Shown here: in pieces, positions 14,036-39,010 of the stretch
Layout of the letters: each line of letters begins with the position of its first letter
Position numbering within the stretch: position 1 is the first letter of the stretch
Origin: Spirochaetia bacterium
Lineage (GTDB): Bacteria > Spirochaetota > Spirochaetia > SZUA-6 > Bin103
DNA length: 64,000 nucleotides
NCBI GenBank assembly: GCA_965203905.1
Contig: CBDBDQ010000005.1
Span: forward strand, 2,912,001 to 2,976,000
Direction: 5' to 3'
The notes under the pieces: model-generated
What the model was told of the DNA's origin: nothing
Database searches by the model: none
What the model saw: only the letters and a program-made list of their open reading frames with translations
Translations under genes and position numbers: made by a program

Positions 14036-14142
14036 CTTTCGCTTCGTCGTGTTCGTCGTGGGTCACAAGGACATCTCCCGTTACCCAACCGTGGGCCGCA
14101 GGCCTGCTCCGTCTATGATCGGACGCGCGTGCAGCGCCGCGG

Positions 14143-15017
14143 TTACGTCGCCGCGGTCCGGCTCCGTACCGCCTCCAGGTTCAGCACCTGCATCGTCTCG
14201 TCTCCCATCGCCAACGCGTAGATCCCGTGCCGCGTCAGGTAGGTCACCAGGTCTTCCGGTATGCTCAGCGACGAGAACGCCGGCACGATCGGGACTGTCT
14301 CATATTCGGGATAGTACAGCCGGAATTCGCCGCTGCGCAGAAACTCTACGAACGCTCGCGCATACGAACGCACGCCTGGGGGCGAGGCGACGACTTGGTC
14401 TCGTTCAGCAACACCGCCCGCGTCCCGACGTAGAGCGCGTCGAACTCCCGCGTGCGGGAGCGGTCGTCGCTCCGCGTCACGGCCTGGCGCGTGGTGAAGC
14501 GTACCAGCTCGCCGCAGCCGAACACCTCGCGCGCCAGGCGCCGGACGCTCGGCGCCACGATGTCTTCCACCACCGTACCCATCTTGTTGGCCAGCTCGCC
14601 CCACCGCTTGTTCATCTCCCGCCGTTCGCGGGCGGCCTCCTCGCGGTCCTGAGCGGCTATCGCGCGTTCGCGCTCGCGTTCGCGGGCGGCTTCCTCGCGG
14701 TCCTGGGCGGCCATCGAGCGTTCGCGGGCGGCTTCCTCACGTTCGCGGACTCCCTCCTGCACATAGTGCTGGACGATACGCTCGAGGCGCGCGATAGACT
14801 CGTCGGTCCGTGCGACGGACTCGTTGGTCCGCGCGATAGACTCGTCGGTCCGTGCGACGGACTCATTGGTCCGCGCGATAGACTCGTCGGTCCGTACGAC
14901 GGACTCGTTGGTCCGCGCGATAGACTCGTCCGTGTGAGCCATGAAGCGGGCCAGGATGGACTCCAGATTGGCCACCCGCTCTTCGACCGCCCCTGTCCGT
15001 TGTGCAAGCGTAGCCAT
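14143..15017 (-). pseudogene. Coiled-coil plus PD-(D/E)XK nuclease-like protein (DUF3782-like), frameshifted near 14370
   Basis: Heptad repeats, RWGELANKMGTVVEDIV, REFDALYV...LNETKS (ExD..ExK); C-terminus (YARAFVEF...GIYALAMGD) lies in another frame. Confidence 0.7.
14791..14937. repeat. Coding tandem repeat, 7 x 21 nt (42-nt superperiod)
   Basis: Alternating GCGATAGACTCGTCGGTCCGT / GCGACGGACTCGTTGGTCCGC units encoding TDESIAR/TNESVAR. Confidence 0.95.
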
Positions 15018-15221
15018 GGTGCCCCTGTCTGCCTCAGGGTAGCCCTGGGGCGGCTGCAGGACAAGTGCACCGGGGAGTGAGTGCGCCGGGCAGCATCAAT
15101 CGGGGCGGCGCGCGTGATGTGGCCGCCAGGCGCATCGCGGCAGCGTTCTCAGGCGCTTCAGTCGAAGGGTATCTTAATCGGCAGCGTGAGGGGATAATTG
15201 CTGACAAGAAGGAGGCGGGAA

Positions 15222-16103
15222 ATGACCGACAGACAGGCGGTGCGGCCGGCGGTGGCCGCGGATGACTGGGACCGCCTGGCCGTGGCGCCGCTGCCAGAGC
15301 TGGACGGCGAGTATCCGCTCAGCGAGGCGCAGGTCGCGGGCTTCTGGGAGAACGGCTTCATCGTCCTGGAAGAGGTGCTCGACCGGGCCGAGATCAATGC
15401 CTACGGCGAGGCGATCCGCGACGTGGCGATGGCCCACTTCCGCGCCCGCAACCTGGCGCTGTCGTTCGGCGGCGCCTTCCTGCAGCAGCTCAACCTGCGC
15501 TACTGCTCGGACGCGGTACGCAGCTTCGTGCTCAGCCCGCGCTTCGGGCGCATCGCCAGCCGCCTGCTGCGCGCGCCCGCTGTGCGCCTGTACCACGAGC
15601 AGGCGCTGTTCAAGCCGCCCGGCGGCACCGACTCGCACTGGCACCAGGACCAGTACTACTTCCCGTTCGACGACACCTTCACCATGGGCCTGTGGATGCC
15701 GCTGGTGGACTGCTCGCTGGACATGGGCCCGCTGCGCTTCGTGGCCGGCTCCCACAAGTACGGCAACCTGGAGGGCATGTCGATCAGCGAGGAGTCGAAA
15801 CGCTTCTTCGACGACTTCATCGAGCGCGAGGGGCTGGAGGTGGTGCAGGTGCCGGGGCTCAAGGCGGGCGACTGCTCCATCCACCTGGGCTGGACCGTGC
15901 ACGGCGCGCCGGCCAACCGCACCGACAAGGTGCGCGAGGCGATGACCGCCAACTACTTTCCCGACGGCGCCCGCATCACCGACATGTCGCGCTCGCCGGA
16001 CGGGCTGCGTTTTGTCGGTGGCCTGCTGCCCGGCCAGCTCGCCAACAGCGTGATGAACCCGATCGTGTTCTCGGAAAACGGGTCGGAGGCGGACGCGAAA
16101 TGA
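15222..16103 (+). CDS. Phytanoyl-CoA dioxygenase (PhyH) family Fe(II)/2OG oxygenase
   Basis: WHQD, GSH, distal H (TVHGAPAN) and R; RBS GGAGG. Confidence 0.92.
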   Translation: MTDRQAVRPAVAADDWDRLAVAPLPELDGEYPLSEAQVAGFWENGFIVLEEVLDRAEINAYGEAIRDVAMAHFRARNLALSFGGAFLQQLNLRYCSDAVRSFVLSPRFGRIASRLLRAPAVRLYHEQALFKPPGGTDSHWHQDQYYFPFDDTFTMGLWMPLVDCSLDMGPLRFVAGSHKYGNLEGMSISEESKRFFDDFIEREGLEVVQVPGLKAGDCSIHLGWTVHGAPANRTDKVREAMTANYFPDGARITDMSRSPDGLRFVGGLLPGQLANSVMNPIVFSENGSEADAK

Positions 16104-17623
16104 CCGGCCAGTGGAGCGCCGAGCAGGCCAACAAGTGGTTCGCCTCGATCCCGTTGCCGTTCGGCTGCAACTTCCTGCCGAGCACGGCGGTGAACAGCAC
16201 CGAGATGTGGCAGGCGGAGACCTTCGACGCCGCGACCATCGAGCGCGAGCTGCAGCTCGCCGCAGGGCTCGGCTACAACACGGTGCGCGTGTTCCTGCAG
16301 TTCATGGTCTGGGAGGCCGACCCGGCCGGCCACAACGAGCGCCTGGAAACCTTCTTGCGGCTGGCTGACGCGGCCGGCATCAGCATGATGCCGATCCTGT
16401 TCGACGACTGCCGCTTCGACGACCGCGACCCCTACCCGGGGCGCCAGGACGACCCCAAGCCGGGGGTGCACAACAGCCGCTGGACGCCGAGCCCCGGCTA
16501 TGCCACCGCCGACGACCCCTCACGCTGGGCGCAACTCGAAGCCTACGTCAGCGACGTGGTCGGGGCCTTCGGCAGCGACCGCCGGGTGCTGGTGTGGGAT
16601 CTGTACAACGAGCCGGGCGGGGATCGCCCCAAGGAGAGCCTGCCGCTGGTGGAGGCGGCATTCCGCTGGGCGCGCGCCGCCGATCCGCGGCAGCCGCTGA
16701 CCGTGGGCTCGTTCTTCTGGCACGACTACATGACCGAGATCCGGCTGTGCGGGGAACGCAACTCCGACGTGGTGTCGTTCCACAGCTACGGCAACCTGCA
16801 CGAGGTGCGCGAGCGCCTCGACGAACTGGAGCAGTACGGGCGCCCCGTGCTGTGCACCGAGTGGCTGGCGCGCCACCACGGCTCCAAGTTCGCCAGCCAC
16901 CTGCCGCTGTTCCGCGAGCGCAACGTCGGCGTCTACCAGTGGGGCCTGGTGGCAGGCCGCACCCAGACCTGGCTGCACTGGTACACCCGCTACAGCCCGG
17001 AGCCGGAGGGCGAGCCGCGCCTGTGGCTGCACGACGTGATACGGCCCGACGGCTCGCTATTCGACCCGGCCGAGGCCGACGCGCTGCGCGAACACGCCGG
17101 CCAGGACCTGGCACTGGAGCCGGTGCCGATGACCGCGCAACTCATGGCCCACCTGGAGGAGCTGGGACTGATCATCCGCCTGCGCCCCGGCGGCCACGAC
17201 CTGGCGGCGCAGCCGGGCGAGACGCTGGGCGAGTCGATATACGAGACCGCCGACCGCTACGGCCCGCACAAGCTGATCGCCGTCACCGTGAACCGCGCCG
17301 AGTTCGCCGCCTTCGGCAGCCACCCCGACAACGAGGAGTTCCTGCTGCTCGGCAACCCCGACAGCCAGCCGATGTACCTCGCCGTGGCCCTGTGCCTGCG
17401 CGAAGAGTTCGAGGACAAGCTGAAGACCGGCCGCCTGACCGCCGCCGACCTGGTGATGATCGAGTGCCGCTACAACGACCCCGAGGTGAGCTTCTTCGTG
17501 ATGCGCGCCGACGTCCCCCACGGCGAGGCGATCGTCCCGGCAGCGGGCAAGCCGCCCCCCAGCTTTTACGTCACCGAATCCCGCGACCTGCCCCTGGACC
17601 TCATCGACCTCCGCAAGTACCGC
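15687..17623 (+). repeat. Copy 1 of a ~1.94-kb direct repeat (phyH 3' half plus GH-cupin gene)
   Basis: Near-identical to 24151..26088; part also matches 21028..21640. Confidence 0.95.
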
Positions 17624-17641
17624 CTCCGGGTCGCACGCTGA
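16100..17641 (+). CDS. GH5-like (clan GH-A) glycoside hydrolase fused to a C-terminal cupin-like domain
   Basis: NTVRVFL, WDLYNEP acid/base, SFHSY, CTEW nucleophile; C-domain HPDNEE...PHGE; ATGA overlap with phyH. Confidence 0.82.
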   Translation: MTGQWSAEQANKWFASIPLPFGCNFLPSTAVNSTEMWQAETFDAATIERELQLAAGLGYNTVRVFLQFMVWEADPAGHNERLETFLRLADAAGISMMPILFDDCRFDDRDPYPGRQDDPKPGVHNSRWTPSPGYATADDPSRWAQLEAYVSDVVGAFGSDRRVLVWDLYNEPGGDRPKESLPLVEAAFRWARAADPRQPLTVGSFFWHDYMTEIRLCGERNSDVVSFHSYGNLHEVRERLDELEQYGRPVLCTEWLARHHGSKFASHLPLFRERNVGVYQWGLVAGRTQTWLHWYTRYSPEPEGEPRLWLHDVIRPDGSLFDPAEADALREHAGQDLALEPVPMTAQLMAHLEELGLIIRLRPGGHDLAAQPGETLGESIYETADRYGPHKLIAVTVNRAEFAAFGSHPDNEEFLLLGNPDSQPMYLAVALCLREEFEDKLKTGRLTAADLVMIECRYNDPEVSFFVMRADVPHGEAIVPAAGKPPPSFYVTESRDLPLDLIDLRKYRLRVAR

Positions 17642-17986
17642 CCTCACGGTAGCGGCGTCGTTGTGGCTGAGTGCTCTCACCGTTACCAGGGCTATAGCCG
17701 CAATCCTGAACCTGAGGACCGGCCTATCGATCCGCGCTACCCGGCAGACCTCTCCCAGGCTTGATCCCGTTCCGTAGAAGTGATACATATGATACATCAC
17801 TAACGTGACCGATGTGATCGAACGAATCCATAGCCCCTACACGTTGTGCAAAGGGATAGCATTCTGCGCCGAAAACGAATACGGGATCCTGATGCTGGTC
17901 TATCCCGGCGTGAGTCAGTCATACGCTACGCCCACTTTGATGTCGTCCCATCCTCACATTATGGTTCGTCAAGGAAGTAACTTATA

Positions 17987-19648
17987 GTGGTTTTCAAGGA
18001 ACATCAGACGCCACGTAAGCTTCGTGGTGGATACTACACACCACCTGAGCTTACAGACTTTCTCTGCCGCTGGGTAGCAAGGATTCGTCCAACCTCCCTC
18101 CTTGAACCAAGTTGTGGAGATGGGGCGTTCTTCGATAGCATTTCACGTCACCTCGATAATCCGTCTTTAGTCGCATTTGAGATAGACGACGGCGAGGCGG
18201 TACGAGCGCGTCAGAAAGCAAGCACTAATGGATTGACTCGAACAACGATCGAGACCAAGGATTTCCTTGGTTGGGCGTCGGAGGCGCTTCTGAACAAGAG
18301 TGCTGTATTCGACGCTATAGTCGGGAACCCTCCATTTATCCGCTATCAGTATCTCCCGCCTCGGTTCCAGCAACGTGCTGAGTTGGTATTCCGAGTGTTG
18401 GACTGCAAATTTACGCGACACACTAACGCTTGGGTGCCATTCGTGCTGGCGTCGTTAGCCTTGCTTCGGCCCGGTGGACGCATAGGGCTTGTAGTACCAG
18501 CAGAGATCATTCATGTCATGCACGCTCAATCTTTGCGAACTTATCTCGCTAGGAATTGCCAGCGTGTCGTAATCGTCGATCCAGAGGAACTCTGGTTTCC
18601 AGACACTCTTCAAGGTGCAGTCTTACTCCTTGCGGAGAAGCGTCGTGATTCTTGGGATCATGTAGAGGGAGTCGGGATCTACACTGTTCGAGGCATGGAG
18701 TTCGTAAACGATGATCCCGATCGGGTTTTCTATGGTGCTCAGACTAGCAATGGGAGGTCTATTCACGGTAAGTGGACTACCGCCCTTGTGGAACCTTACA
18801 TGCGTACGCTGCTAGACGCCTTGGCTGAGAACGAGGCCGTGCGACGTTTCGAGGATATCGCCGACGTAGATGTTGGGATAGTGACGGGAGCAAACAAGTT
18901 CTTTCTTGTGCCGGACGAGACGATCCGCACGTATGGTTTGGAGCAGTGGGCGCATCCGATGTTTGGACGGAGCGAACACTGTCCCGGCGTTATTTATGAT
19001 AATCAGCAGCACCAAGCGAACGCTGCACGGGGCAGTGCGACGAATTTCCTGTGGTTCCCCGACTCGGAGATCGAGAGCCATTCTGGGGCGCTAGCCTATG
19101 TCCGCAAGGGAGAAAACAGCCGACTTCATGTGCGCTATAAGTGTCGTATACGAAATCCTTGGTACAGCGTTCCATCGGTATATTCGACAGAGATTGGGAT
19201 GCTGAAGCGGGCACACAATACACCGCGGCTGATACTTAACAGCTTACGGGCATATACAACAGACACGGCGTACCGGGTGCGTATAAAGCAAGGCAGCAGC
19301 GAACAGCTCGTATATTGCTTTGTGAATGCACTTACCGCGCTGACGGCCGAACTCGTGGGGCGACACTACGGCGGTGGCGTACTTGAGCTTGTCCCGTCCG
19401 AGATCGAGAACCTATGGATCCCATTGCCATCCATAGTCGACGTGAATCTGGTGTTGTTGGATAGAATAGTTCGCACCTCGTCAATCGAGTCAGTTCTTGA
19501 GCAGCAGTCGAGACATGTTCTCGGCGCAATCGGCCTTCGCCCATACGAACAAGACGAACTACTCAGTTCATGGAAGAAACTCCGAGATCGACGCCACCGA
19601 AACATGTCTGGAGAACAAGACCGTACACCTAATCTATTTCCAGCGTGA
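17987..19648 (+). CDS. N6-adenine DNA methyltransferase, gamma class (Eco57I/TaqI-like), Type II R-M
   Basis: GGYYTP, LLEPSCGDGAF (motif I), VGNPPF (motif IV), GRHYGGGVLELVPSE; lower GC. Confidence 0.92.
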   Translation: MVFKEHQTPRKLRGGYYTPPELTDFLCRWVARIRPTSLLEPSCGDGAFFDSISRHLDNPSLVAFEIDDGEAVRARQKASTNGLTRTTIETKDFLGWASEALLNKSAVFDAIVGNPPFIRYQYLPPRFQQRAELVFRVLDCKFTRHTNAWVPFVLASLALLRPGGRIGLVVPAEIIHVMHAQSLRTYLARNCQRVVIVDPEELWFPDTLQGAVLLLAEKRRDSWDHVEGVGIYTVRGMEFVNDDPDRVFYGAQTSNGRSIHGKWTTALVEPYMRTLLDALAENEAVRRFEDIADVDVGIVTGANKFFLVPDETIRTYGLEQWAHPMFGRSEHCPGVIYDNQQHQANAARGSATNFLWFPDSEIESHSGALAYVRKGENSRLHVRYKCRIRNPWYSVPSVYSTEIGMLKRAHNTPRLILNSLRAYTTDTAYRVRIKQGSSEQLVYCFVNALTALTAELVGRHYGGGVLELVPSEIENLWIPLPSIVDVNLVLLDRIVRTSSIESVLEQQSRHVLGAIGLRPYEQDELLSSWKKLRDRRHRNMSGEQDRTPNLFPA

Positions 19649-20783
19649 AGTGGTCCGTCTCTTGGTACAGATACATCGATCGTCCGATAAGATCTTCTTT
19701 GGCAATCATATTCCGCACCTCGCCCCAGTGTAGCTGTGTCATGCTGTTTCCTTGACTATACGTCCGAGTGTCGGTGCGAGTATTGTGAGAGACCCGTAGG
19801 TTGAATATACCGTAATCGACATTACGTACAACAATCCTGAATCTAGCATCCGCGCGTTCGTAGTGCGTGAGCGTAGCGTCGATTATCCACGGCAAGCTTG
19901 AGAACACATCGTCTCGAAAATAGTGTCGTTGATCGATTCCCTCGATAGCTCCTTTCGAGAATAGCATTGATCCAGTGGGATTGGTGCTCGATGCAGTTGG
20001 TATATTTAGGTCTCGACGTGTGAGCGGGTTACTCTGCCACACAAGTTTCGAACGTAGCCTCGCATCAGAATCTCCTATGAGTTCCGCATCTTCAGGCGAC
20101 TGGTCCATTCTTTTTCTGCGGAAAGGAAACGCCGGCGTCTTGAGCGGCATTCTATTCAGCACATCTATCTCTGAGTAACTCGATCGCATTGTATGCTCTG
20201 GTGCAGGATCTGCCATCTCATCGACCACACGACCAGAATCAAAAAAACGCCGGATATCTTTGATATCGGAAATCAGACAAACGTGATCAGTGTACTCTGC
20301 CACAAGTTGTTGAAACACACCTTCGAGCTTCGAAGAAACGGCAGCGTCGCTATCGTTACATAACTCTAGCGTCAACGCAAGGCTAGCCTCTACATTTGAA
20401 ACTAGTCCGCCGAAAGTTAGGTTAGCACTACCAACTACTATGCGTGCTTCCTCACGGTTCCGCGCATAGTATACCTTAGGATGGAAGACGATGTTGCGAG
20501 ATCCGGTGTCGACAGTGTAAGTCCGGCAGCCTATGTCCATGCTCAATCTGAGCGCCTGTGCCGAAGTTATTCCGTTTCGAATACCCGCAAATACCGTTGT
20601 CGACTCTGCGATGGGTTCTATCGTGTCTTGCAGGATGGAGAGACCAGCCTTCGTCATGAACGCAGTGCTCAGCACTATCATCTGCGGCTCTGGAAGAGAT
20701 AGCAGGCTTTTTAGTAGGGCTAGGTGATTGTCGTGGACGACACCCTGTAGGAGGAACTTGGTCTTAGGCACTTTCGCTGACAC
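19629..20783 (-). CDS. PLD (HKD)-family restriction endonuclease, BfiI/NgoFVII-like N-domain
   Basis: FHPKVY...VVGSANLT.GGL..NVEAS; convergent with and overlapping the MTase by 20 nt. Confidence 0.8.
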   Translation of the reverse strand: MSAKVPKTKFLLQGVVHDNHLALLKSLLSLPEPQMIVLSTAFMTKAGLSILQDTIEPIAESTTVFAGIRNGITSAQALRLSMDIGCRTYTVDTGSRNIVFHPKVYYARNREEARIVVGSANLTFGGLVSNVEASLALTLELCNDSDAAVSSKLEGVFQQLVAEYTDHVCLISDIKDIRRFFDSGRVVDEMADPAPEHTMRSSYSEIDVLNRMPLKTPAFPFRRKRMDQSPEDAELIGDSDARLRSKLVWQSNPLTRRDLNIPTASSTNPTGSMLFSKGAIEGIDQRHYFRDDVFSSLPWIIDATLTHYERADARFRIVVRNVDYGIFNLRVSHNTRTDTRTYSQGNSMTQLHWGEVRNMIAKEDLIGRSMYLYQETDHFTLEID

Positions 20784-21027
20784 GATGGTTCGGTACGGAT
20801 TTATACAATAGTGTCGGCATTGGGCCCTGCGGAGGTTAGCCGTTTACTCGCTACTCTCGGCCGCATGTAATTTCGGCTATCTTCAGGATAGGACGAAACC
20901 GTGCGGGGCGTAGAGACAACGTACAGGAATGCGCGTTAACGTAGCAATCAGGTCAGGGCCTACGAACAGCGTGCGGGTGGCCTGATGCGTTTGCGTCGAA
21001 GAAATTGAAACTGGACCGACTCTGACC

Positions 21028-21640
21028 GTGCCGTCGTTCCACAGCTACGGCGCCCCCAAGGAGGTGCGCGGGCACCTCGACAAGCTGGAGGAGTACGGTT
21101 GCCCCGCCGCAGTACATGGAGCGGCGGCGCGGCACCACGGCGCCAAGTTTCGCAGCCACGCGCCACTGTTCCGCGAACGCAACGTCTGCATCTACCAACT
21201 GGGATTGGTGGCGGGGCGCACGTAGGCGTTGCTTTCACTGTGGTACACCCGCTACAGCCCGGAGCCGGGGCGCGAGCCGCGCTTGTGGCTGCACGACGTG
21301 ATGCGGTCCGACGGCTACTGCTCTACCCCGGCCGAGGCCGCCGCCCTGCGCCAACACCCCCGGCGAGGGCCTCGGCGCTGGAGCCGATGTCGATAACGCC
21401 GAAGCTGCTGGAGCACCCAGAAAAGCTTCAGATTGATCAACCGCCTATGGCCCCGTCGGCCACGACGTGGCCGCACAGCTGGGCGAGGCCCTCGGCTACG
21501 AAACTGCCGATCGCTAACGGCATGCGCATACTTATAGCCGCGACCGTGAACCACGCCGAGCTCGCCGCATCAAGCACTACCCCGACACCGAGAAGTGCAT
21601 GCTGATCGGAGTCCCGACAGCCAGCCGAGATACCCTGTCG
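21028..21640 (+). pseudogene. Degenerate internal/3' fragment of the GH-cupin gene (third copy)
   Basis: SFHSYG..EVR, HHGAKF.SH.PLFRERNV, WYTRYSPEP, LWLHDV match about 16770-17390, with many indels and stops. Confidence 0.9.
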
Positions 21641-21838
21641 TGACGATAGTGCGGTCGACGCCCCTATGACGATCTAGTGTAGTCCGCGAACAGAACCTGC
21701 GCCACTCACGCCTGTCCCGCCAACGCACACTATGAGCGTCACAGTCCATCACGGACGCTCCTTGCTTGCGACGCCACCGGCTGCTTTATTGTCGTAACAC
21801 CTACCACTGTCCCAACAAAATCGCAACAAGGCAAGTCA

Positions 21839-24015
21839 ATGACCAGTATCACCGTTTCCCTCAAGAATTGCTACGGTATTCGTAAGCTTGATCACCGATT
21901 CGACTTCCGCGACCGAGACGCATATTCTATATACGCTCCGAACGGCTCTATGAAGTCCTCTTTTGCCCAGACTTTCAAGGATCTTGCCGAAGGAACATCA
22001 TCTTGCGACAGGATTTTCCCGTCACGCGAAACGACGCGTCTGATTATAGATGAAACAGGCACGGAAATATCAAACGAACAAATCCTCGTCCTACCGCCAT
22101 ACGACGAGTTTTTAGCCACAACGAAAAGACCTCCACTCTACTCGTAAACAACACCCTCCGCCAAGAATACGAACTACTGCACGCGGACATCGAGAAGTCG
22201 AAGACTGATTTCCTATCTGCTATGAAGGACCAGTCAAGATCAAGGAAGCCGCTCGAGGCCGAAATCGCGCTGACCTTCACGAAAGGAAATGATGAAGAAT
22301 CTTTCTACGTCGCTCTTGAACGCATTGCTCCTGAGATAGAAGACCAGTCCCACGCACCATTTGCCGACGTTCCCTACGACATAGTATTTGATCCCAAGGT
22401 ACTCGAAGCACTCGCGTCAAGCGATTTACGATCCGCTATCGAAGACTACATTACTCGCTATAATCAGGTAATTGAGTCTTCCAAATACTTTGCTCAGGGT
22501 ATCTTCGAACATTACAACGCAGCTCAGATTGCCAAGAACCTTGCTTCCAATGGGTTCTTCAGTGCCCGACACACAGTTACTCTAAACGCTACCAAAAAAA
22601 TGGTGATATCCTCCAAGAAGCAGCTCGAGGACCTAGTCGCGGGTGAGCTATCTGAGATCACAAAAGACAGCCAGCTGAAGAAACGTTTCGCGGCTGTCCG
22701 AAAACAGTTGGAACGCAACCTGCAACTACGTCAGTTCCAGCGATACCTGTGTTCCAACGTCCTACTTCTCCCACACCTTTCTAACGTGGAGCTTTTTAGG
22801 GAACAAGTGTGGAAGTCATATTTCAAAGCTAAGGAGCCTGTATACGCCGAACTCCTGTCAAAGTACAGGATGGTCAAGGCTCGTCGTAAGGAAATCGAAC
22901 AGGAGGCACAGAAAGAGCAAACGCTGTGGGAAGACGCGATCCATCTCTTCAACGATCGATTTTTTGTACCCTTCACGCTCTACGCCAAGAACAAAGCGGC
23001 CGTGATGTTGCGGGGCGAAGACGACCTTGAGCTCGGGTATAGGTTTCGGGACGGCAATGATGAGGTCGAGGTGCCGCGCGACGAGCTGATGAAAACCCTT
23101 AGTCAGGGCGAGAAGAAGGCTCTCTATATTCTAAACATAATTTTCGAGATAGAAGTTCGTCGGAAGAACCAACAAGAGACACTATTCGTGGTTGACGACA
23201 TAGCAGATTCCTTTGACTATAAGAACAAGTACGCTATCATACAATACCTTCAGGATGTCTCGGATGTGCCGAATTTTCGACAGATCATATTGACGCACAA
23301 CTTCGACTTCTTTAGGACGATTAGCAGTCGGTTCGTGGGTTACGCCGGATGTCTGACGGCAACGAAGTCGAGTGACGGGGTGGCGCTGTCCCAGGCGTTT
23401 GGGATTCGGAACCCGTTTCTGCGTGATTGGAAGCACGAGTTCTTCGTTGATCCCAAGAAGCGGATCGCATCGATCTCGTTCATGCGCAACCTTGTCGAGC
23501 ACGTATTCGGCGAGTCGGATCCAAACTACTTACGACTGACATCGCTTCTACATTGGAAGACTGACTCGCTAGCCATAACACAGTCAGATCTGGATAGGAT
23601 CTACGCGAATGTTTTTTCTTCAAACGGGTCGCGGTTCACGAACGGAAATGAACCCGTGGTTGATATGATCAAGAGGGAGGCGAACGATTGCCTCAGCGCG
23701 CGTTCCGGAATCAATTTCGAAAACAAGATCGTGCTCTCGATCGCCATTAGATTGAGCTCGGAGCGTTTCATGGCTGGCATGATTAGTGACTCTGTGTTTC
23801 TCGCCGAACTTGGAAGGAATCAAACGAATGCTCTCTTGAAGAGGTTCATACAAGATTTTGGATACCGTGACGAACAGATACGCATATTGAGGAAGGTCAT
23901 GCTCATGACGCCAGAGCATATACACCTTAACGCGTTTATGTATGAGCCTATTCTCGATATGTCAGATGATTCGCTGAGAGCATTGTACCGTGAAGTACAG
24001 AACCTGTCGCTTTGA
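21839..24015 (+). pseudogene. SMC/Rad50-like ABC ATPase (RloC/AAA_13-like architecture), split by a 1-nt frameshift in T5 at 22109-22113
   Basis: Walker A-like YAPNGSMKS, coiled coil, LSQGEKKAL signature, VVDDIADSFD Walker B/D-loop, ILTHN; the frame continuing FSHNEKTSTLLVN is the frame of ORF 22222..24015. Confidence 0.8.
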
Positions 24016-24150
24016 TTTGAGCGGGTCTTGACTCGCCTGCAACCGGTGATGGTTCCGGTGGGATGCACGATCTGGTGCACTCTCTATTGGTTGAAAGAGG
24101 GGATGGTTGGCGCGGCCCGGAGTGAGTCCGTGGCTCAATGTGGCACGAAT

Positions 24151-24567
24151 GGCCTGTGGATGCCGCTGGTGGACTGCTCGCTGGACATGGGCCCGCTGCG
24201 CTTCGTGGCCGGCTCCCACAAGTACGGCAACCTGGAAGGCATGTCGATCAGCGAGGAGTCGAGACGCTTCTTCGACGACTTCATCGAGCGCGAGGGGCTG
24301 GAGGTGGTGCAGGTGCCCGGTCTCAAGGCGGGCGACTGCTCCATCCACCTGGGCTGGACCGTGCACGGCGCGCCGGCAAACCGCACCGACAAGGTGCGCG
24401 AGGCGATGACCGCCAACTACTTTCCCGACGGCGCCCGCATCACCGACATGTCGCGCTCGCCGGACGGGCTGCGTTTTGTCGGTGGCCTGCTGCCGGGCCA
24501 GCTCGCCAACGGCGCCATGAACCCGATCGTGTATTCCGAGAAGGGCGCGGAGGCTCAGACCAAGTGA
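24151..24567 (+). pseudogene. 5'-truncated copy of phyH
   Basis: Identity to 15687 onward begins abruptly at GGCCTGTGGATGCC; lacks HxD. Confidence 0.92.
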
Positions 24568-26163
24568 AGGAGCAGTGGAGCGCCGAGCAGGCCAACGAGT
24601 GGTTCGCGTCGATCCCGTTGCCGTTCGGCTGCAACTTCCTGCCGAGCACGGCGGTGAACAGCACCGAGATGTGGCAGGCGGAGACCTTCGACGCCGCCAC
24701 CATCGAGCGCGAGCTGCAGCTCGTTGGCCGGGCTCGGCTACAACACGGTGCGCGTGTTCCTGCAGTTCATGGTGTGGGAGGCCGACCCGGCCGGCCACAA
24801 CGAGCGCCTGGAGATTTTCTTGAGGTTGGCCGACGTGGCCGGCATCACGATGATGCCGATCCTGTTCGACGACTGCCGCTTCGACGACCGCGACCCCTAC
24901 CCGGGGCGCCAGGACGACCCCAAGCCGGGGGTGCACAACAGCCGCTGGACACCGAGCCCCGGCTACGTCACCGCCGATGACCCCTCACGCTGGCCGCAAC
25001 TCGAAGCCTACGTCAGCGACGTGGTCGGAGCTTTTGCCAGCGACCGCCGGGTGCTGGTGTGGGACCTGTACAACGAGCCGGGCGGGGACCGCCCCAAGGA
25101 GAGCCTGCCGCTGGTGGAGGCGGCATTCCGCTGGGCGCGCGCCGCCGATCCGCGGCAGCCGCTGACCGTGGGCTCGTTCTTCTGGCACGACTACATGACC
25201 GAGATCCGGCTGTGCGGGGAACGCAACTCCGACGTGGTGTCGTTCCACAGCTACGGCAACCTGCACGAGGTGCGCGAGCGCCTCGACGAGCTGGCGCGCT
25301 ACGGCCGCCCGCTGCTGTGCACGGAGTGGCTGGCGCGCCACCACGGCTCCAAGTTCGCCAGCCACCTGCCGTTGTTCCGCGAGCGCAACGTCGGCGTCTA
25401 CCAGTGGGGCCTGGTGGCAGGCCGCACCCAGACCTGGCTGCACTGGTACACCCGCTACAGCCCGGAGCCGGAGGGCGAGCCGCGCCTGTGGCTGCACGAC
25501 GTGATTCGGCCCGACGGCTCGCTGTTCGACCCGACCGAGGCCATCGTGCTGCGCGAACACGCCGGCGAGGACCTGGCACTGGAGCCGGTGCCGATGACCG
25601 CGCAACTCATGGCCCACCTGGAGGAGCTGGGACTGGTCATCCGCCTGCGCCCCGGCGGCCACGACCTGGCGGCGCAGCCGGGCGAGACGCTGGGCGAGTC
25701 GATCTACGAGACCGCCGACCGCTACGGCCCGCACAAGCTGATCGCCGTCACCGTGAACCGCGCCGAGTTCGCCGCCTTCGGCAGCCACCCCGACAACGAG
25801 GAGTTCCTGCTGCTCGGCAACCCCGACAGCCAGCCGATGTACCTCGCCGTGGCCCTGTGCCTGCGCGAGGAATTCGAGGAAAAGGTCAAGACCGGCCGCC
25901 TGTCAGCCTCCGACTTGGTGATGATCGAGTGCCGCTACAACGACCCCGAGGTGAGCTTCTTCGTGATGCGCGCCGACGTCCCCCACGGCGAGGCGATCGT
26001 CCCGGCAGCGGGCAAGCCGCCCCCCAGCTTCTACGTCACCGAATCCCGCGACCTTCCCCTGGACCTCATCGACCTCCGCAAGTACCGCATGCGTATAACG
26101 ATCACCCGAGTCTCGCAACGCCCCGTACCACTTCCCACCCTCAGCGACCACTCCAGCACGTAG
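24564..26163 (+). pseudogene. Second GH-cupin copy with +1 frameshift near 24724 and a different C-tail
   Basis: GTG start 24564; CAGCTCGTTGGCCGGG versus CAGCTCGCCGCAGGG in copy 1; homology ends at 26088. Confidence 0.88.
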
Positions 26164-26523
26164 CGCTTCAAGCACCGTCATTACGGGCTTTGACCGAACT
26201 GCGGTCGCGCATACGACGCAGGTAGGAGGGGTCACCTGGGCCGCACCGGCCTCCACCTCCCAAAGCACAGAGGCCGATTTGGTCGAACCGGACAGCGCCC
26301 ATCCCCCTCCGACCCTCCCAACCGCGGCTGCTGACGCACCTCCTTACGGACCGCCACCATAGTCACCGTCCGATCGAAACGAAGCGATGTGAAGCAGCTG
26401 GGCACGATGCTACCCGTCATCGCACTCCAGAACCGGCACACTCCACTCGCAACGCCCCATACCATAGCTTGCACCATGCTAGGCGTCGATCTATCCTATG
26501 CCATACGGAGGACGCAAATCGCA

Positions 26524-28953
26524 ATGACCGTGGCCGATGAAAGCCCAGAACTACTACTTAGCATTCCCCAGTCCGAGAAAATAAAACGGCTGTCCAACAT
26601 GTCAGAGCAGGACTTTCGCGACAAGATCGTTCGGCCCCTGTTCCTTATGTTAGGATACCAAGACGGACGCGAATTGCACGGCCCCGACGAGCAAGGGAAA
26701 GATATCCTATTTGTCGAAGAAGACAAGCTCGGCGGAAAACGGATCATATGTGTGCAAACAAAAAAGGGAAAGATCACCATGGCGTCAAGACACTCTGAAA
26801 ACATACAGGACGTCATTACACAACTTCGCATGGCGTTGAATACTCGCGTATCACACCTTGAGAGCAGACAGCAATACTATCCTCATGACGTCTTTCTTTG
26901 TACCAGCGGGATCATCAATACGAACGCACGTCGTCATATAGTAACCGAACTGGACCGGGACCGACGGATAGAATTCCTGGATGCGCAATCGATAGTCAAT
27001 CTCGTCGACCAGAAATGCCCACAACTATGGCAGGGAATTAGTGCTGATATCTTCGCGCACTACGATACGATTCGCAAGCATGTCGAGTACAATACGTCGG
27101 ATATTATCGATCCGGGAGCGGCTAACGATGCTACTTTCGTGCAGCTTACATTTTATCGCGAAATAGAGAAGCCAGTAAAGAAGGGTGGCAATGTCCGTAG
27201 TGGACTTGAGTTCGAAGAAAAGAAGATCCATGACCTCATACACCAAGACGCTGCCACGGTGCTGATTGTCGGTGATGCCGGCAGCGGAAAGAGCACGGCT
27301 CTGTGGCGCATCGCGTATGAGATTGTGCGTCAAGACCGTGGCAGGGGATACCGAATCCCAATACTCCTGTTCTCCCGCGACCTTTCGCACAAGATCTCGA
27401 GTACTGAAGATGTGGTCGCCGAAATGCAGCGTCTATCGTGCGAGTTTTCATCGGTCAAGCAGGATCTCTTCCAATCGCGAGACATCGCCGAGGGTCGCAT
27501 CACGCTCCTAGTCGACGGAGTAGATGAGATTGCTGACTCCGTACGGCGCAATAGACTCGTACAAATCTTGTGTGAATTCCGAACCAAGTATCCGAGATGT
27601 TCGGTAATTGTAACAACGCGGCCAGACGGGAAGACCAAACAGTACTTCCGGGAGCACCGCCTAAAGATCTACAACGTGGCGCCTATCAGTTGGCGCCAAG
27701 TGAGAAGGATCATCACGCAGGTGCTGGCCGCCCGGCGCTTCACAGAGGGACAGTTGGAGAGTATCACGAGTGGCGCCCACAACGTCTTGCGACAGATAGA
27801 GGAAGTCCACGGCTTCCAGATTACTCCGCTCCTGGCCACAGTGTATGCCGCATCGGCGGACTACTCGCGGAGTGATATCCCTGCAAATATCACTGAGCTC
27901 TTCAAGAAGTACACTGAACTCATGTTGGGTCGATGGGATGAGCAGAAGGGGCTGTCACAGCAGTACCGCGCACCGTTAAAGGACTTTATCCTCAAGAAGG
28001 TCGCCTATGAGATGCACCGCAACAGATTACTGTACGTCACACGAGAGAACTTTACCGCGATGGTGAAGGAGCTTTTGACCGAGCGGGGCCATAGATTGGA
28101 GACACAGGAGATCGAAGACGAGCTGCTTGGCCGATCGCGTCTGTTGCGAGTGAGGCGCGAGGGCGTTGGATTTGCACACGTTCTCTTACAAGAGTTCTTC
28201 GCGGGTCGCTCAATGCCACCTAACATGGTCGAATCATACGTCAGTGACTCATGGTGGACTAAATCCATTGTATTCCATTATGGTGAGAACCCGGAACATG
28301 CTGGACATCTCCGCAAAGTTCAACAGAACGTGATGCAACGTAAGGATCAGAGTACGGTGTCGTATCGTGCTATCGGATTGGGTCTTCAAGCAGCGTACTT
28401 GTCGTTGCTGTCCGATAAGGTAGCGATCTGGTTGAATGTCGTCGCAAAATTGTCGGAATTCATGGCGACATATTTCGAAGATGGTGGACAACGGAGGTTG
28501 TTTCCGCTGACGGAGATGACTGTGAGCTACCTAGGGCTTCGTGACGCGGTGGCCTTTTCTTCGTTGTCAGACAAGGACGTTAGATCTCAGGTATTGGAGC
28601 ACTTTCGTAATCGGTACAAGAAGCCCGACCATGATGTGACCGAAGCTATGCACTTTTGGTATGTCATCGCTTTGCTAGAGAGCGGATTTACAGAGCAGGC
28701 TGAGGAAATGCTGAGCCGTTACAGATTTTGCGATCTGAGATACTACTTGTGGATTGTGATGGGTGCAAGGTTTATTGAGAAAATCCTTCCGGTTAGTCGA
28801 GAACAGAAAGAGACAGCACGGAGGATTCAACAGAACTATGAAGATCATGTTCGTGAGAATATGAAAGAATTAATGCGAGAGTTTCACGATTCCATGCTAC
28901 TTGAAATGAAGGGCGAGAGAGTTGTAGAGGTTCCTGACCAAGCGGACGAGTGA
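26524..28953 (+). CDS. Mrr-like restriction endonuclease fused to NACHT/STAND NTPase (bacterial NLR-related defence protein)
   Basis: SEQDF...HGPDEQGKDI...VQTKKG nuclease; GDAGSGKS, LLVDGVDE, VTTR, ITPLLA, FAHVLLQEFF; RBS GGAGG. Confidence 0.85.
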   Translation: MTVADESPELLLSIPQSEKIKRLSNMSEQDFRDKIVRPLFLMLGYQDGRELHGPDEQGKDILFVEEDKLGGKRIICVQTKKGKITMASRHSENIQDVITQLRMALNTRVSHLESRQQYYPHDVFLCTSGIINTNARRHIVTELDRDRRIEFLDAQSIVNLVDQKCPQLWQGISADIFAHYDTIRKHVEYNTSDIIDPGAANDATFVQLTFYREIEKPVKKGGNVRSGLEFEEKKIHDLIHQDAATVLIVGDAGSGKSTALWRIAYEIVRQDRGRGYRIPILLFSRDLSHKISSTEDVVAEMQRLSCEFSSVKQDLFQSRDIAEGRITLLVDGVDEIADSVRRNRLVQILCEFRTKYPRCSVIVTTRPDGKTKQYFREHRLKIYNVAPISWRQVRRIITQVLAARRFTEGQLESITSGAHNVLRQIEEVHGFQITPLLATVYAASADYSRSDIPANITELFKKYTELMLGRWDEQKGLSQQYRAPLKDFILKKVAYEMHRNRLLYVTRENFTAMVKELLTERGHRLETQEIEDELLGRSRLLRVRREGVGFAHVLLQEFFAGRSMPPNMVESYVSDSWWTKSIVFHYGENPEHAGHLRKVQQNVMQRKDQSTVSYRAIGLGLQAAYLSLLSDKVAIWLNVVAKLSEFMATYFEDGGQRRLFPLTEMTVSYLGLRDAVAFSSLSDKDVRSQVLEHFRNRYKKPDHDVTEAMHFWYVIALLESGFTEQAEEMLSRYRFCDLRYYLWIVMGARFIEKILPVSREQKETARRIQQNYEDHVRENMKELMREFHDSMLLEMKGERVVEVPDQADE

Positions 28954-29468
28954 CGCGAATGGGACAATTGGGTTTTGGGAATCGTACCGTCGCCATTCCA
29001 TGCCGCTCGCGAGACGACGCGGCCGATCAGGTCCAGCTTGAGCACACCTGCACGATACGCGGTGCGACGCGATCTAGCTCACGCGGGGACATGAACCGCG
29101 CAACAAGCCCGCGGTGTCGGCAAGGCCAACGACGGCGGCGTCGCGCGGGTGCGGAATGGCGTCGCTGAACAGTATCGCCATGATCCGTCGCCTACGTCCC
29201 GGTCTGTCGCGGGGTCGCCGGTCGGGTAGCGTTGCGGCGGAAATACCCACAGGAACCGCCCCTCGCGACGATGGAGGTTGCCACGGTCGACGAGACGTTT
29301 CAATACACGGGCCCCGATGAGATGCGCCTGATCTGCTTGCGGATAGTGCAAGGGTTCGGGTAGGCTGTGCTTGTTGAACAACAAGCAACGAAGGCTGGCC
29401 TCGTGCTACCGTCTTCACGGATCCGGTGTCGGTCACCGCAGCGGGCGAGAGCGTGCTTGTGCACCTCC

Positions 29469-29790
29469 ACGAGCAACACCATGACCTACAAGGGGTATGC
29501 GGCCCGGATCGAGTATGACGACGACGGAATGTTTACGGGACGGATCGCAGGAATACGGGAAGGTGTGGGTTCCATGCCGATTCGGTGGAGGGCCTGAGAC
29601 AAGCCTTCCACGAAGCAGTCGAGGATTACCTCGCGATCTGCGCCAAGATAGGCAAGGAGCCCCCAGAAGGCGTACTCGGTCCGGGTTCCGTGTCAACCCG
29701 GAAACGCACCGCAAGGCTGCTCTGGCGGCTGAACTGTTCGGCAAGAGTCTGAACCTGGGCCGAAGAGGTGCCGGAGCGCGCCGCGGCTGA
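29469..29790 (+). pseudogene. hicB: HicB-family antitoxin remnant
   Basis: TMTYKGYAARIEYD..FTGRIAGI / FHEAVEDYL..C.KIGKEPQKAYS / RVNPETHRKAALAAE..GKSLN spread across frameshifts. Confidence 0.85.
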
Positions 29791-29848
29791 GGGGTAGGCG
29801 CCGATCTCAACGATCTCACGCCCACGAGTGTGCTTGCTTGGCGTCCCT

Positions 29849-29991
29849 TTCGCTATCGAAGCACGGTACGGAGCCGGTCGATGGCTGCCTGCAGTGTCTC
29901 GAGGGAGCGGCAGAGGGCGAATCGCAGGTAGCGCTCGCCCTGGCGTCCGGTAGTGTAGAAGTTGTCGCCCGGTACCGTGGCCACCCCAGCC
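29849..29991 (-). repeat. Diverged copy of the aminotransferase 3' end
   Basis: GVATVPGDNFYTTGRQGERYLRFALCRSLETLQAAIDRL versus 37701..37844. Confidence 0.92.
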
Positions 29992-31239
29992 CGCAGGAGC
30001 CCTCGGCGGCAGACCGCGAGGGCTTCTGCCAACACCGTCGCGCTGCCCCTCATTTTCACATCGCCCTGATGCACAGCGGCAGAGGCCAAGTCGTAGGCGT
30101 TCCGCAGACTGTCCCAAACACGGCGCCTGTCAGCGGGGTCTTCGCCGACGAGCCACGCCCCCGACGCCGCAAGACGGAACTTCAACTCCTGCTGGGGTTT
30201 CTCGGGTAGGAACAACGATTCAAGCGCGATACGGAGATCCAATGAACCGATCAGGGCGCCTGCGAGTATTGTCTTTTGCCATTTTCCATCGAGACACAGC
30301 CACGCGAATGCGAGCGTCCGCACGATGCAGTTGTCCGACAAGAAACCCAAGATTCTCCGCTGAGACATCTCGGATACCCTCGACGTCCACTTCGATACGG
30401 CCTTCGCGAGTCTCAAGGTCTTTCGATTCGCCCTTGAAGTGCCGCAGATGGCCAAGCGATCCGCGACCACGTATCCTGTGCTTTGCGAGGGCGTAATACT
30501 CACCGTAGTCATCCCAGGTTAGCCCCCGATCGACAAACATGTCACATTCCAGCGACAACGCTTCGCGGATGGTTTCCAGCGTGACCTGCGGAATCAGCGA
30601 CGGCCGCAAGTACCCCGTCTTTGGGCTCGGGCTTGACGGTCGGAAAAGTGCGGGCCTCGTTTCAGCAGCGATTGAGATAAGACACTGACCCAAGTAGTCG
30701 GTTCGGGGCCTCCCATGGTGGACAGGCAACCCGCCTGGAAGTTCCTGGGTGGACAATGCAAGAGGAATGATGTCAACGCCCTCGATCGGAGACAGCCTCC
30801 GAGTCAACGTTATGGGGACAACGGTACAAGTACGGTAGTTCATCGGCGCTCCACCCACCCAATCTGCGATCAGCCCCGCCACCCGCTCACATCCAGTCAC
30901 CGCAGCGCATCTGGTCAGCGAATCGGCGAGTTCCTCGAACGAAGAATACTGGGCCTCGGTATACAATTCCTCCTTCTCGACTTTCACCACGCCCCCACGA
31001 TCGCCTCCCATTGGGAAAGCGTGGCCAACACTGTCAGTCGAGTGATCTATGTAATCGTGCAGGAGTCTTCGCAGTGCTTCTGCAAGGCCGTTCCGAGAAT
31101 TCCGTCTCCATTCGAACCATGGGTATGTGACCGCGCGCAACTGAGTTGTACTCCGATCTCGACCGTTCGTAGAGCTCGCGAAGGGCCTTAGCGTCGAGCG
31201 TCTCCTCCGGGCGGCCAGCGCAACTCGAGACGCTTCCAT
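29992..31239 (-). pseudogene. Apea-like HEPN domain protein, frameshifted near 30240 and 3'-joined to the aminotransferase tail
   Basis: AVSRW...DRFI|DLRIALESLFL..QELKFRLA..GAW...AYDLASAAVHQG. Confidence 0.7.
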
Positions 31240-37705: not shown

Positions 37706-39010
37706 TTAGCGAAGTCCTGTATGGAGCCGTTCGATGGCCGCCTGCAGCGATTCCAGCGAGCGGCAAAAGGCGAACCGCAGGTAGCGCTCGCCCTCGCGTC
37801 CGGTGGTGTAGAAGTTGTCGCCCGGCACCGTGGCCACTCCCGCCTGCTCGATGAGAAACATGGCGGCCTGCGTCGGGGGCCTCTGCGCCAGTGCCGGCAC
37901 GCTGCGGTAGTCCGCGAACAGGTAGTAGGCGCCCTCCGGGGGCGTCACCGCAAACCCGATGTCACGCAGGCCATTGACCAGCAGGTCGCGCTTCTGGCGA
38001 TAGCCTGCCGCGATGCCGGCGAAGAACGATCGCGGCTGGCGCAGGAGCGACACCGCCCCCCTCTGCAGCGGCGTCGGCGCCTGCACCACGAGGTTGTCGT
38101 GGACGGCGCGCAGCGCCGGCGTGCGCTCCGGCGGCGTGATCACCCAGCCGACGCGCCACCCGGTCGCGCGCCCGGTCTTGGAGATCGAGTTCACCACCAG
38201 CGTTCGTTCCGCCATCCCTTCGCACAGCGACAGACAAAGGTGGCGATGGCCCTCGAACGTGATGTGCTCGTAGATCTCGTCGGTGATGGCGAACCGGTTG
38301 TGGGTCCGGCACAGTTCCGCGATGAACTCCAGGTCCTCCGCGTCCAGCACCTTGCCGGTCGGGTTCTGCGGGGTGTTCACGACCACCGCCTTGACCGCCG
38401 GATCGGACAGCGCGGTGCGTAACTCGTCGCGGTCCAGCCGCCAAGTTCCGGCGCCGCAGTCCTCGCGCAAGGTCACGAAGCGGGGCACGAGCCCGAAGAT
38501 CGCCGCCTGCGACGGGTACAGCTCGTGATAGGGCTGCATAACCACGACGCCGTCGCCCGGGTCGAGCAGCGAGCAGAATGCGGCCGCCATGCCCTCGCTG
38601 GCCCCGAGCACCACCGTGACCTGCTCCTCGGGGTCGGGCCGGTAGCCGTAGCAGGTCTGCGTGTAGTCGGCGATCGCGTGGCGCAGCTCCGGGATCCCGA
38701 ACGGATAGGAATACTGGTTGAGTTCGTCGCGGGGGCCGCGCCACCGCTCGAACAGCTCCTTCACGGTGCGGTCGAGCGCGTCGGCGCCGGCGGTCGCGTT
38801 CGCGTCCAGGAGCTCGCGCACGGTCATCGACTCCACGCGGCGCGCACCCTCCCCGGTGCCGCCGAGCAGCGCCGCCACCCCGCTCCACACCATGTCCCAG
38901 GCCGGCGTCTCATCGGTAAACCCCTGCGCCAGGTTCACCGCCCCGTGCGCCGCCGCGAGCCGCGTCATGCGGCGGATCACCGTCTCCTTGATCTGCGTCA
39001 CCTGCTCCAC
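37706..39010 (-). CDS. PLP-dependent class I/II aminotransferase
   Basis: NLAQGF, NTPQNPTG, DEIYE, SISKT..TGWRVG, YLRFAFC. Confidence 0.93.
   Translation of the reverse strand: MEQVTQIKETVIRRMTRLAAAHGAVNLAQGFTDETPAWDMVWSGVAALLGGTGEGARRVESMTVRELLDANATAGADALDRTVKELFERWRGPRDELNQYSYPFGIPELRHAIADYTQTCYGYRPDPEEQVTVVLGASEGMAAAFCSLLDPGDGVVVMQPYHELYPSQAAIFGLVPRFVTLREDCGAGTWRLDRDELRTALSDPAVKAVVVNTPQNPTGKVLDAEDLEFIAELCRTHNRFAITDEIYEHITFEGHRHLCLSLCEGMAERTLVVNSISKTGRATGWRVGWVITPPERTPALRAVHDNLVVQAPTPLQRGAVSLLRQPRSFFAGIAAGYRQKRDLLVNGLRDIGFAVTPPEGAYYLFADYRSVPALAQRPPTQAAMFLIEQAGVATVPGDNFYTTGREGERYLRFAFCRSLESLQAAIERLHTGLR

Follow-up and report, generated by a model that had tools for sequence, protein, structure and literature searches.

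A candidate integrase-free defence hotspot in a Spirochaetia genome, with cassettes interleaved among diverged copies of a phyH–glycoside hydrolase gene pair

Three kinds of described system come close to the locus reported here. Restriction-modification (R-M) genes are known to occur as an 'insertion with long target duplication' (Furuta, Abe and Kobayashi 2010; PMC2853133), and the authors also proposed amplification and release via the repeats. For the effector–immunity arrays of the Vibrio cholerae type VI secretion system (T6SS), a model of homology-facilitated illegitimate recombination (HFIR) has been put forward, with the orphan modules of Rhs and contact-dependent inhibition (CDI) systems being cited alongside (Kirchberger et al. 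2017; PMC5361080); that paper itself likens such arrays to those of integrons. The core defence hotspots cDHS1 and cDHS2 of Pseudomonas aeruginosa (Johnson et al. 2023; PMC10250203) form the third kind; homologous recombination at the flanks was proposed as their transfer route, and how such hotspots are constructed was called an open question (PMC10250203). Hotspots of Escherichia coli (PMC10121019) belong beside them. The locus analysed here lies in a 64,000-nt stretch of DNA (hereafter the window; 2.912–2.976 Mb of a 7.79-Mb contig) from a Spirochaetia bacterium (GenBank assembly GCA_965203905.1; 7.99 Mb in five contigs, 66% GC), in which a host gene pair, phyH and a glycoside hydrolase (GH) gene, is followed by an array of defence-type cassettes and further, damaged copies of the same pair. 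We give an even chance to the reading that this is an integrase-free hotspot that grew by addition, through the homology-anchored import of cassettes.

The array consists, in order, of an intact phyH-GH5 pair, a type II R-M cassette, a decayed GH fragment, a frameshifted PDC-S46 ATPase gene, a 5′-truncated phyH′-GH′ pair and an Mrr-NACHT gene. Its architecture is real. Profile searches were made with the Pfam, PADLOC and PHROG sets, and repeats were sought by self-BLAST and by a repeat search of the window, which returned the same repeat families. Copy 1, at the array head, holds phyH (15198..16103, + strand; phytanoyl-CoA dioxygenase family, 301 aa; Pfam PF05721, E 2.3e-30) and a GH5-like GH gene (16100..17641, +; 513 aa; Pfam Cellulase at residues 45–261, 37.4 bits), both intact; the ATG of GH overlaps the phyH stop codon, and GH retains its native C-terminus and stop. 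GH orthologues in relatives are 87–92% identical to it, and zero further copies of GH lie outside the array in this genome. Self-BLAST matched 15687–17623 to 24151–26088 (95.7% over 1938 columns), the duplicated segment beginning inside phyH, at 15687. It also matched 16761–17386 to 21019–21642 (77.1% over 637 columns), and the latter to 25226–25851 (76.5%). Copy 2 (21019..21642, +), delimited by self-BLAST and alignments, is an internal GH fragment equivalent to 16761–17386; stops, frameshifts and 30 indel columns out of 640 mark it as heavily decayed, the last ~255 nt of GH are missing from it, and its substitutions fall 44/38/33 at codon positions 3/1/2 (chi-square p 0.45). Copy 3 (24151..26088, +), delimited in the same way, comprises phyH′ (24151–24567), which is without the first 489 nt of phyH, and GH′, which starts at 24564 and has an open frame that extends to 26163. 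It has lost the final 18 nt of GH, so that homology breaks off ahead of the native stop, and its one indel, a 1-nt insertion at 24724, is shared neither by copy 1 nor by any of six relatives. The copies also differ at their 3′ ends, which correspond to 17641, about 17386 and 17623.

The three cargo blocks have a GC content of 0.518, 0.496 and 0.521 (cargo 1–3), against 0.693, 0.668 and 0.688 for host copies 1–3; the composition of the cargo is foreign. Cargo 1 (17642..21018) starts directly at the GH stop codon. As a type II R-M system it has a clear M.Eco57I-like methyltransferase (17987–19648, +; PADLOC MTase_II PDLC03267, full length, E 1.6e-188), and its candidate partner, a convergent PLD-like candidate nuclease gene (19629–20783, −), gave weak PLD/REase matches only (PLDc_2 E 2e-4, REase_II E 3e-4). 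Cargo 2 (21643..24150, +; PADLOC PDLC05023) is a candidate defence ATPase, PDC-S46, in two halves that lie in different frames, 21839–22147 (profile positions 1–92, E 2.9e-32) and 22222–24015 (127–718, E 9.2e-214), with no single intact open reading frame (ORF) over the 719-position profile. Since very strong profile matches flank a single frameshift near 22105–22150, the inactivation of PDC-S46 looks recent, unlike that of the old GH fragment just upstream. The cargo 3 region (26089..29464; Pfam) holds the gene of an Mrr-like nuclease with a NACHT NTPase domain (26389–28953, +; 854 aa, GC 0.508; Mrr_cat at residues 69–182, NACHT at 290–447), whose product matches Avs2 and PDC-S60 weakly and whose C-terminal 400 aa match no family. 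A GC-rich fragment of a GPP34-like gene (29079–29384, −) was found in the same region by domain search.

An earlier note on this DNA, made from the letters alone, had described three co-oriented host-gene copies, each with a different low-GC defence-type cargo and with differing 5′ breakpoints. Self-BLAST and GC content agree with it on the order, on the orientation (all copies on the + strand) and on the breakpoints (the equivalents of 15687 and 16761). Four details had to be revised. The copies were said to be ends of the host gene, and copy 2 is in fact an internal GH piece from which ~255 nt of the 3′ end are absent; being truncated at both ends, it places a module behind a gene piece only in the sense of an internal piece. 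Copy 3 stops short of the gene's end as well, by 18 nt, and carries a private insertion. The 'cupin' part attributed to the GH gene received no support from Pfam. Finally, the cassette ascribed to an ABC ATPase does encode an ATPase, according to the PDC-S46 profile, but the gene is broken by a frameshift.

Support for the assembly was sought in public sequencing runs, the data being k-mer contigs. One run holds 96% of the sampled words of the stretch. One k-mer contig spans 17599–24180 (6582 nt) and another spans 26059–31771 (5713 nt), both with 0 differences; every junction between cargo and flank is therefore present in reads, including the joining of cargo 2 to the middle of phyH. The run with these junction contigs may be the genome's source sample, which makes it independent of the assembler and not of the source. 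The depth over both cargo blocks was equal, about 9.1–9.3, with neighbouring host DNA bins at 9.3–12. Many 'joints' with sides of 20–29 nt, which most likely stem from other organisms or repeats, were left out of the analysis. Two runs holding the stretch (X7 and X8) also yielded, over 13000–32000, contigs of related organisms in which GH carries an internal deletion (joint of 24717 to 25785 or 17320, with 5 nt between), a form that resembles the one seen in relative G018.

Comparison with the other 23 family genomes, of which 10 share the genus and others belong to a second one, showed the 3′ side of phyH-GH to be a variable hotspot between conserved genes. GH was matched in eight of the 10 genus genomes, six times at full length and in pieces only in G001 and G005; in the second genus it occurs as decayed pieces, with G013 having in addition a full-length copy on another contig, accompanied by only the 3′ part of phyH and in an unrelated context. 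Seven relatives have a single full-length GH copy. The homology to the window extends in 16 retrieved loci to the end of GH and then stops; 11 of the 12 aligned relatives' loci, and copy 1 with them, reach a stop codon at the same position and are dissimilar beyond it, the gene of the remaining one (G009) reading on for a few nt more. Two forms show the site empty: in G004 an 85% match to 29467–29548 starts directly after the GH stop, and a contig from the metagenome of a different study (X1) joins 17641 to 29465 with 11 nt between. Relative to these forms, the segment 17642–29464 is an 11.8-kb insertion. In the empty-site forms the native neighbour of GH is a HicB-like antitoxin gene, which in the window occupies the region 29465..29848 (+; ORF 29497–29790; Pfam HicB).

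What follows GH in the other relatives varies. A GmrSD/Orf5-type nuclease is found in G007; RadC, a Schlafen-type ATPase and a type III R-M system in G010; and PRiA4_ORF3 in G001, with an AbiLi-like ATPase about 6 kb downstream. Non-defence genes occupy the position elsewhere: an HNH protein, a desaturase and a DDE transposase in G004, an aldo-keto reductase in G008, DUF4143 and an ABC transporter in G009, and DUF5131 in G006. The conserved right-side gene of the variable region encodes a class I/II aminotransferase (37706..39010, −; Pfam PF00155, E 8.2e-58), which in the loci of eight relatives (G004 and seven second-genus genomes) is found within about 10–13 kb of GH or of what is left of it. 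The earlier note had predicted variable defence genes behind phyH-GH in relatives; this is supported in that genus relatives diverge right after the GH stop and carry different, often defence-type cargo there. In the second genus (L040–L048), GH remnants in the form of internal deletions, 3′ pieces and fragments of 80–340 nt stand beside a conserved block that ends at the aminotransferase. A wider census with the GH protein in metagenome contigs kept 80 loci, all of them at 55% identity or less and matching mainly in the GH5 domain, and genome contigs added only three close loci, which were already in the set.

No gene that could have moved the cassettes was recognised. At a Pfam threshold of E ≤ 0.01, integrase and transposase families were absent from the 17 main ORFs and from 75 further stop-to-stop frames of at least 60 aa in 17060–30518; PHROG gave no recombinase match among the 11 unexplained proteins tested, and no recombinase was found in 17642–30200 or in the ORFs tested between 30.2 and 41.9 kb. 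The cargo boundaries have no shared short att-like core, lying at different positions of the gene with no common sequence by self-BLAST. These results agree with the earlier note, which had seen neither an integrase or transposase inside the array nor a convincing short att pair. The nearest mobility-type match is a YhgA-like gene (Transposase_31, PD-(D/E)XK) at 42005–42814, 13 kb downstream of the array.

A similar architecture was sought in the rest of the genome. A survey of 703 local repeat hits yielded 100 direct pairs (at least 88% identity, 0.5–25 kb apart), of which 10 with low-GC gaps were inspected; the architecture was clearly repeated at two of these 10. At the first (L069; 1094000–1106500), an intact thrB-thrC-metallophosphoesterase cluster precedes 3.6 kb of low-GC DNA containing five unassigned ORFs, after which come a 5′-truncated thrC′-metallophosphoesterase′ segment (95.9% over 1598 nt) and a DUF4145 gene; the genes are single-copy in all nine genus relatives with a match. 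At the second (L072; 880000–899999), an intact DegT aminotransferase gene is followed by a 14-kb type 1 BREX locus (BrxA, BrxB, BrxC, a split PglX and BrxL, with no long ORF at the PglZ position) and by a DegT fragment (92.7% over 1041 nt). The DegT segment has one match each in G004 and G006, and none in the other genus relatives. Beside brxL lies a 227-nt element, with 27 copies in G004, that looks like a miniature inverted-repeat transposable element. At a further locus, L077, 262-nt repeats surround an ImmA/IrrE-DUF4411 pair. The sulfatase locus L074 does not fit, its truncated copy being upstream, and L070, L071, L073 and L076 were rejected as clusters of paralogous ABC-transporter or Uma2 genes; tandem clusters of Uma2-family nuclease genes occur commonly in other parts of the genome (L073, L076).

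The evidence for import comes from the way in which copies 1 and 3 have diverged. They differ at 82 sites and by one indel; 49 of the sites are third codon positions (p 9e-7 against 1/3), and the sites are clustered. When the changes were polarised by the majority of the three nearest relatives, those of copy 3 in the truncated phyH′ fell 10/2/2 at codon positions 3/1/2 (p 0.004 against 1/3), 4 of the 14 being GC>AT, and those of copy 3 in GH′ fell 13/9/8, with 20 of 30 being GC>AT; within this branch, phyH′ and GH′ are unlike in their GC>AT share (Fisher p 0.025). Changes of copy 1 in GH fell 18/6/3 (GC>AT 12/27), and the numbers of derived changes on the two branches were similar (44 against 34). 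This is moderate evidence, not proof, that the now-dead phyH′ changed like a selected gene and the 3′-clipped GH′ like a pseudogene. Because the changes in phyH′ look selected and those in GH′ look like decay, these patterns suggest that copy 3 was once a separate allele, which may have evolved as an independent locus, its phyH functional and its GH damaged, before joining the block of copy 1.

From these data we infer both an order of events and a recombination mechanism. In one lineage (A), the Mrr-NACHT cassette would have entered between GH and its hicB-like neighbour, clipping the last 18 nt of GH; the clipped GH would have started to decay, with phyH being kept intact. The allele of a second lineage (B) would have consisted of an intact phyH-GH pair followed by the R-M cassette, the old GH fragment and PDC-S46, and would itself go back to an earlier event of this type. 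The two alleles would then have been united in one chromosome by homologous exchange in or near the shared phyH-GH DNA, with a second, illegitimate junction between 24150 and 24151, inside phyH. Such an event would leave an intact head copy and a displaced, 5′-truncated one. The array calls for two or more duplicative events, widely separated in time. The strictly ordered, left-anchored stacking proposed in the earlier note predicts copy 3 to be the oldest pseudogene, but the most decayed is copy 2 (30 indel columns against 1); either, therefore, at least part of the array was put together elsewhere and arrived as one block, or some additions were made other than on the left. Copy 2 and PDC-S46, perhaps with the R-M cassette, may thus form an older composite that was moved as a block, or the NACHT block may have been added on the right.

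The exchange could have taken either of two routes. Insertion-duplication of the Campbell type, a single crossover with a circular molecule as in the heterogenotes of specialised transduction, has its known cases mainly in laboratory constructs and phage lambda. Its product is a flank, the cargo and a flank copy with one arbitrary circle junction, the first copy staying intact when the gene's 3′ end lies within the flank that is carried. Here the resident phyH-GH would have recombined with a circularised 8,464-bp flank-plus-cargo fragment (phyH′, GH, R-M, GH fragment, PDC-S46). To our knowledge, and with no search aimed at the question, this route has not been documented as a builder of natural defence islands. 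Alternatively, a linear fragment might have entered, with homology anchoring one of its ends and an illegitimate junction forming at the opposite one. The genome has a Ku gene, so end-joining or circularisation is plausible. The earlier note had proposed homology-anchored, one-sided illegitimate recombination; additive import is favoured by the substitutions of copy 3, but a Campbell-type crossover fits the data equally well as one-sided joining, and the two cannot be separated by them. Headful packaging, which would give a constant packaged size, was dropped, the unit lengths being 8,464, 5,155, 15,190 and 7,852 bp.

A number of observations weigh against growth by homology-anchored import. 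The nearest sequence to copy 1 is copy 3, and vice versa (95.2%, with no sampled species above 92.1%), which duplication in situ predicts likewise. The polarised counts are small (14, 30 and 27), polarisation by three relatives is noisy at fast sites, and several tests were tried. No tandem array was found in the 23 other family genomes, their multiple matches being adjacent pieces of one decayed gene or, in G013, a match on another contig; the variable copy number anticipated in the earlier note was thus not seen. Nor did a donor allele emerge: in those 23 genomes no match to the cargo within 17642–29848 exceeded about 66%, and a genome-contig protein search returned no close relative of the Mrr-NACHT protein. 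The k-mer contigs break off 25–30 nt inside the repeat, whereas the copies last differ 33 nt from the junction, so these contigs leave the phasing of GH copies with cargo unshown. At L069 the truncated thrC′ has changed neutrally (3/5/3) and its copy is ~3% further from every relative, a pattern that fits in-situ duplication and decay as well as it fits import. Finally, two shorter flank duplications in the window, of 47 nt (77%) and 146 nt (85%), are poor substrates for homologous recombination.

The foremost alternative is an insertion with long target duplication in situ, in which the cargo would have been joined by two illegitimate junctions to two points of the recipient's DNA, for example on sister chromosomes. 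The segment 15687–17641 would have been duplicated at insertion and its copies would have diverged in place, with R-M addiction guarding the repeat from loop-out. Such a class is documented for R-M types I–IV, with direct repeats that often span the stop codon and no mobility genes (PMC2853133). The mutual closeness of copies 1 and 3 speaks for it, as does the neutral thrC′ at L069 with its uniformly more diverged copy; so does the range of flank duplications in the window and genome (47, 146 and 262 nt, and 1.0–1.9 kb), those of 47 and 146 nt being shorter and older. It predicts, however, the opposite of the substitution pattern, in which the dead phyH′ has third-position, GC-preserving changes and the potentially intact GH′ has changes of the decay type, and a wholly neutral copy would be expected to show a ~2–3 fold excess of derived changes, not the 44 against 34 counted. 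The repeats in the documented cases, as far as the available text of the paper goes, do not exceed about 420 nt, as opposed to 1.9 kb here (PMC2853133). On balance we consider this origin unlikely, yet a serious rival.

Unequal crossing-over might have duplicated a phyH-GH-cargo unit in tandem, with the cassette of one unit later being replaced by a double crossover. This requires more steps and leaves unexplained both the arbitrary 5′ breakpoints within genes (15687, 16761) and the truncation of copy 2 on its two sides; moreover, self-BLAST found no sequence common to the cargo ends. Relatives do hold the same left flank with different cargo, which makes allele swapping plausible, and the genome contains many tandem paralogous clusters, but we judge the scenario quite improbable. 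A site-specific origin would start from the fact, familiar from the biology of phages and islands, that integration into the 3′ end of a gene gives an intact gene, the cargo and a 5′-truncated gene copy. With an integrase acting in trans, or since lost, copies of the GH end could have served as surrogate 3′ ends, and cargo 1 does begin right at the stop codon. Against this stand the lack of a recombinase domain in about 12.5 kb, breakpoints more than 1 kb apart, different 3′ ends in the three copies, boundaries with no common short core and repeats that are kilobases long, all of which render site-specific integration highly improbable. That this metagenome-derived genome was wrongly assembled or phased here, or that a free circle of 8.46 kb was mis-threaded into the chromosome, would suit the millions of contigs that X7 and X8 each gave (90 to >99% identity, with internal-deletion forms of GH, pointing to several related organisms), the relatives' records being metagenome-assembled genomes and the inability of k-mer contigs to phase two 95.7% copies, but retains only a very slight chance, given that all junctions, including that of cargo 2 into mid-phyH, lie in 0-difference contigs of 6.6 and 5.7 kb, that the depth of the cargo blocks is equal and near that of host DNA, and that the chromosome is a 7.8-Mb contig.

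The surroundings of the array bear other duplicated gene ends. To the right of the HicB-like gene (29467–29802), which belongs to a multi-copy family with 73–83% matches in 1–3 places in each of at least 11 family genomes, lies an extra copy of the aminotransferase 3′ end (29849..29994, −; 85% to 37701–37847 by self-BLAST). This 146-nt copy, not mentioned in the earlier note, lies 7.8 kb from the gene, and relatives hold only the copy at the gene itself. Host-like genes for CobA and an ABC transporter and two unassigned ORFs stand between the two, partly syntenic in G004; read in the direction of the aminotransferase gene, the arrangement is again one of intact gene, insert and 5′-truncated copy. 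To the left of the array, a 1.3-kb insertion (13897–15164, in the region 13865–15211) is absent from G007 and G008, and a related insertion is present in G004 and G006. It carries a tRNA-Asp gene (13916–13989, −) and an ORF rich in 21-nt tandem repeats (14346–15017, −), and is bounded by the 47-nt imperfect direct repeat (77%), which copies the upstream permease gene's 3′ end, stop codon included. The tRNA-Asp gene was rejected as an integration site for the array, since it lies upstream of it and within this separate insertion.

If cassettes were indeed imported by homology, a further step can be contemplated: each unit of flank fragment plus defence cassette might, in this uncultured lineage, be a recombination-addressed mobile module, its kb-long and slightly diverged flank repeats allowing it to loop out as a circle and to re-enter, by a single crossover, any relative with the flank gene. 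We regard this as doubtful. Were it true, defence islands would be built, shuffled and exchanged additively with no dedicated recombinase, in an integron-like economy that runs on host recombination, and the BREX locus and the third cargo in the genome would be further products of it. Apart from that proposal, most such hotspots bear no trace of the events that filled them, and the truncated, diverged flank copies seen here are legible scars. They would show that cassettes were added, not swapped, give a relative order of events, and suggest the merging of whole hotspot alleles from related lineages. If the pattern is general, it offers a searchable signature: a defence cassette between an intact gene and a 5′-truncated copy of it that is a few percent diverged, with no recombinase.

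How does the locus compare with the systems described? With the R-M insertions that show long target duplication it shares low-GC defence genes between long direct repeats of host DNA and no transposase or integrase, a single-repeat empty site in a relative, and repeats that reach the stop codon and leave the host gene intact (PMC2853133). That survey looked for inserts of <20 kb between repeats of >30 bp; here a 1938-nt, 95.7% repeat surrounds a 6.5-kb insert with a methyltransferase and a candidate endonuclease, the relatives have a single-copy empty site, and the insert has no other mobility genes. The survey also has both repeats coming from the recipient, and on this point the copies are mutually closest, yet the changes in phyH′ stand at 10/2/2 (p 0.004), with L069 being neutral. 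The locus is unlike the cases in the available text of the survey in that its repeats measure 1.0–1.9 kb, against 30 to about 420 nt there, its copies are 4–7% diverged, one of them bearing signs of evolution as a functional locus in its own right, genes other than R-M (NACHT, PDC-S46, BREX) are among the cargo and the units are stacked (PMC2853133).

The resemblance to the T6SS, Rhs and CDI arrays lies in a conserved gene that heads the array intact, in displaced modules that follow downstream without an integrase, and in a model that combines one homologous anchor with one illegitimate junction (PMC5361080). The anchor, however, is here an unrelated metabolic pair (a PhyH dioxygenase and a GH5 enzyme), and there, as the accessible text has it, a gene functionally tied to the cargo, as a toxin is to its immunity gene; the order of decay is here not newest-first, and whole kb-long flank pieces have been kept (PMC5361080). 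The stacking idea of the earlier note is accordingly not new in kind: the same model already stands in PMC5361080, and the R-M case in PMC2853133. Like cDHS1 and cDHS2, the site is fixed between conserved genes, with variable, low-GC, defence-rich content and no obvious mobile element; unlike them, it has duplicated, truncated flank copies, none of which are described in the available text on those hotspots (PMC10250203). A keyword-bound literature search of small extent returned no description of the exact pattern; we do not claim that it is absent from print. What is distinctive of this locus is the combination of kb-scale, diverged flank copies, an unrelated metabolic anchor, mixed cargo and substitution evidence of merged alleles.

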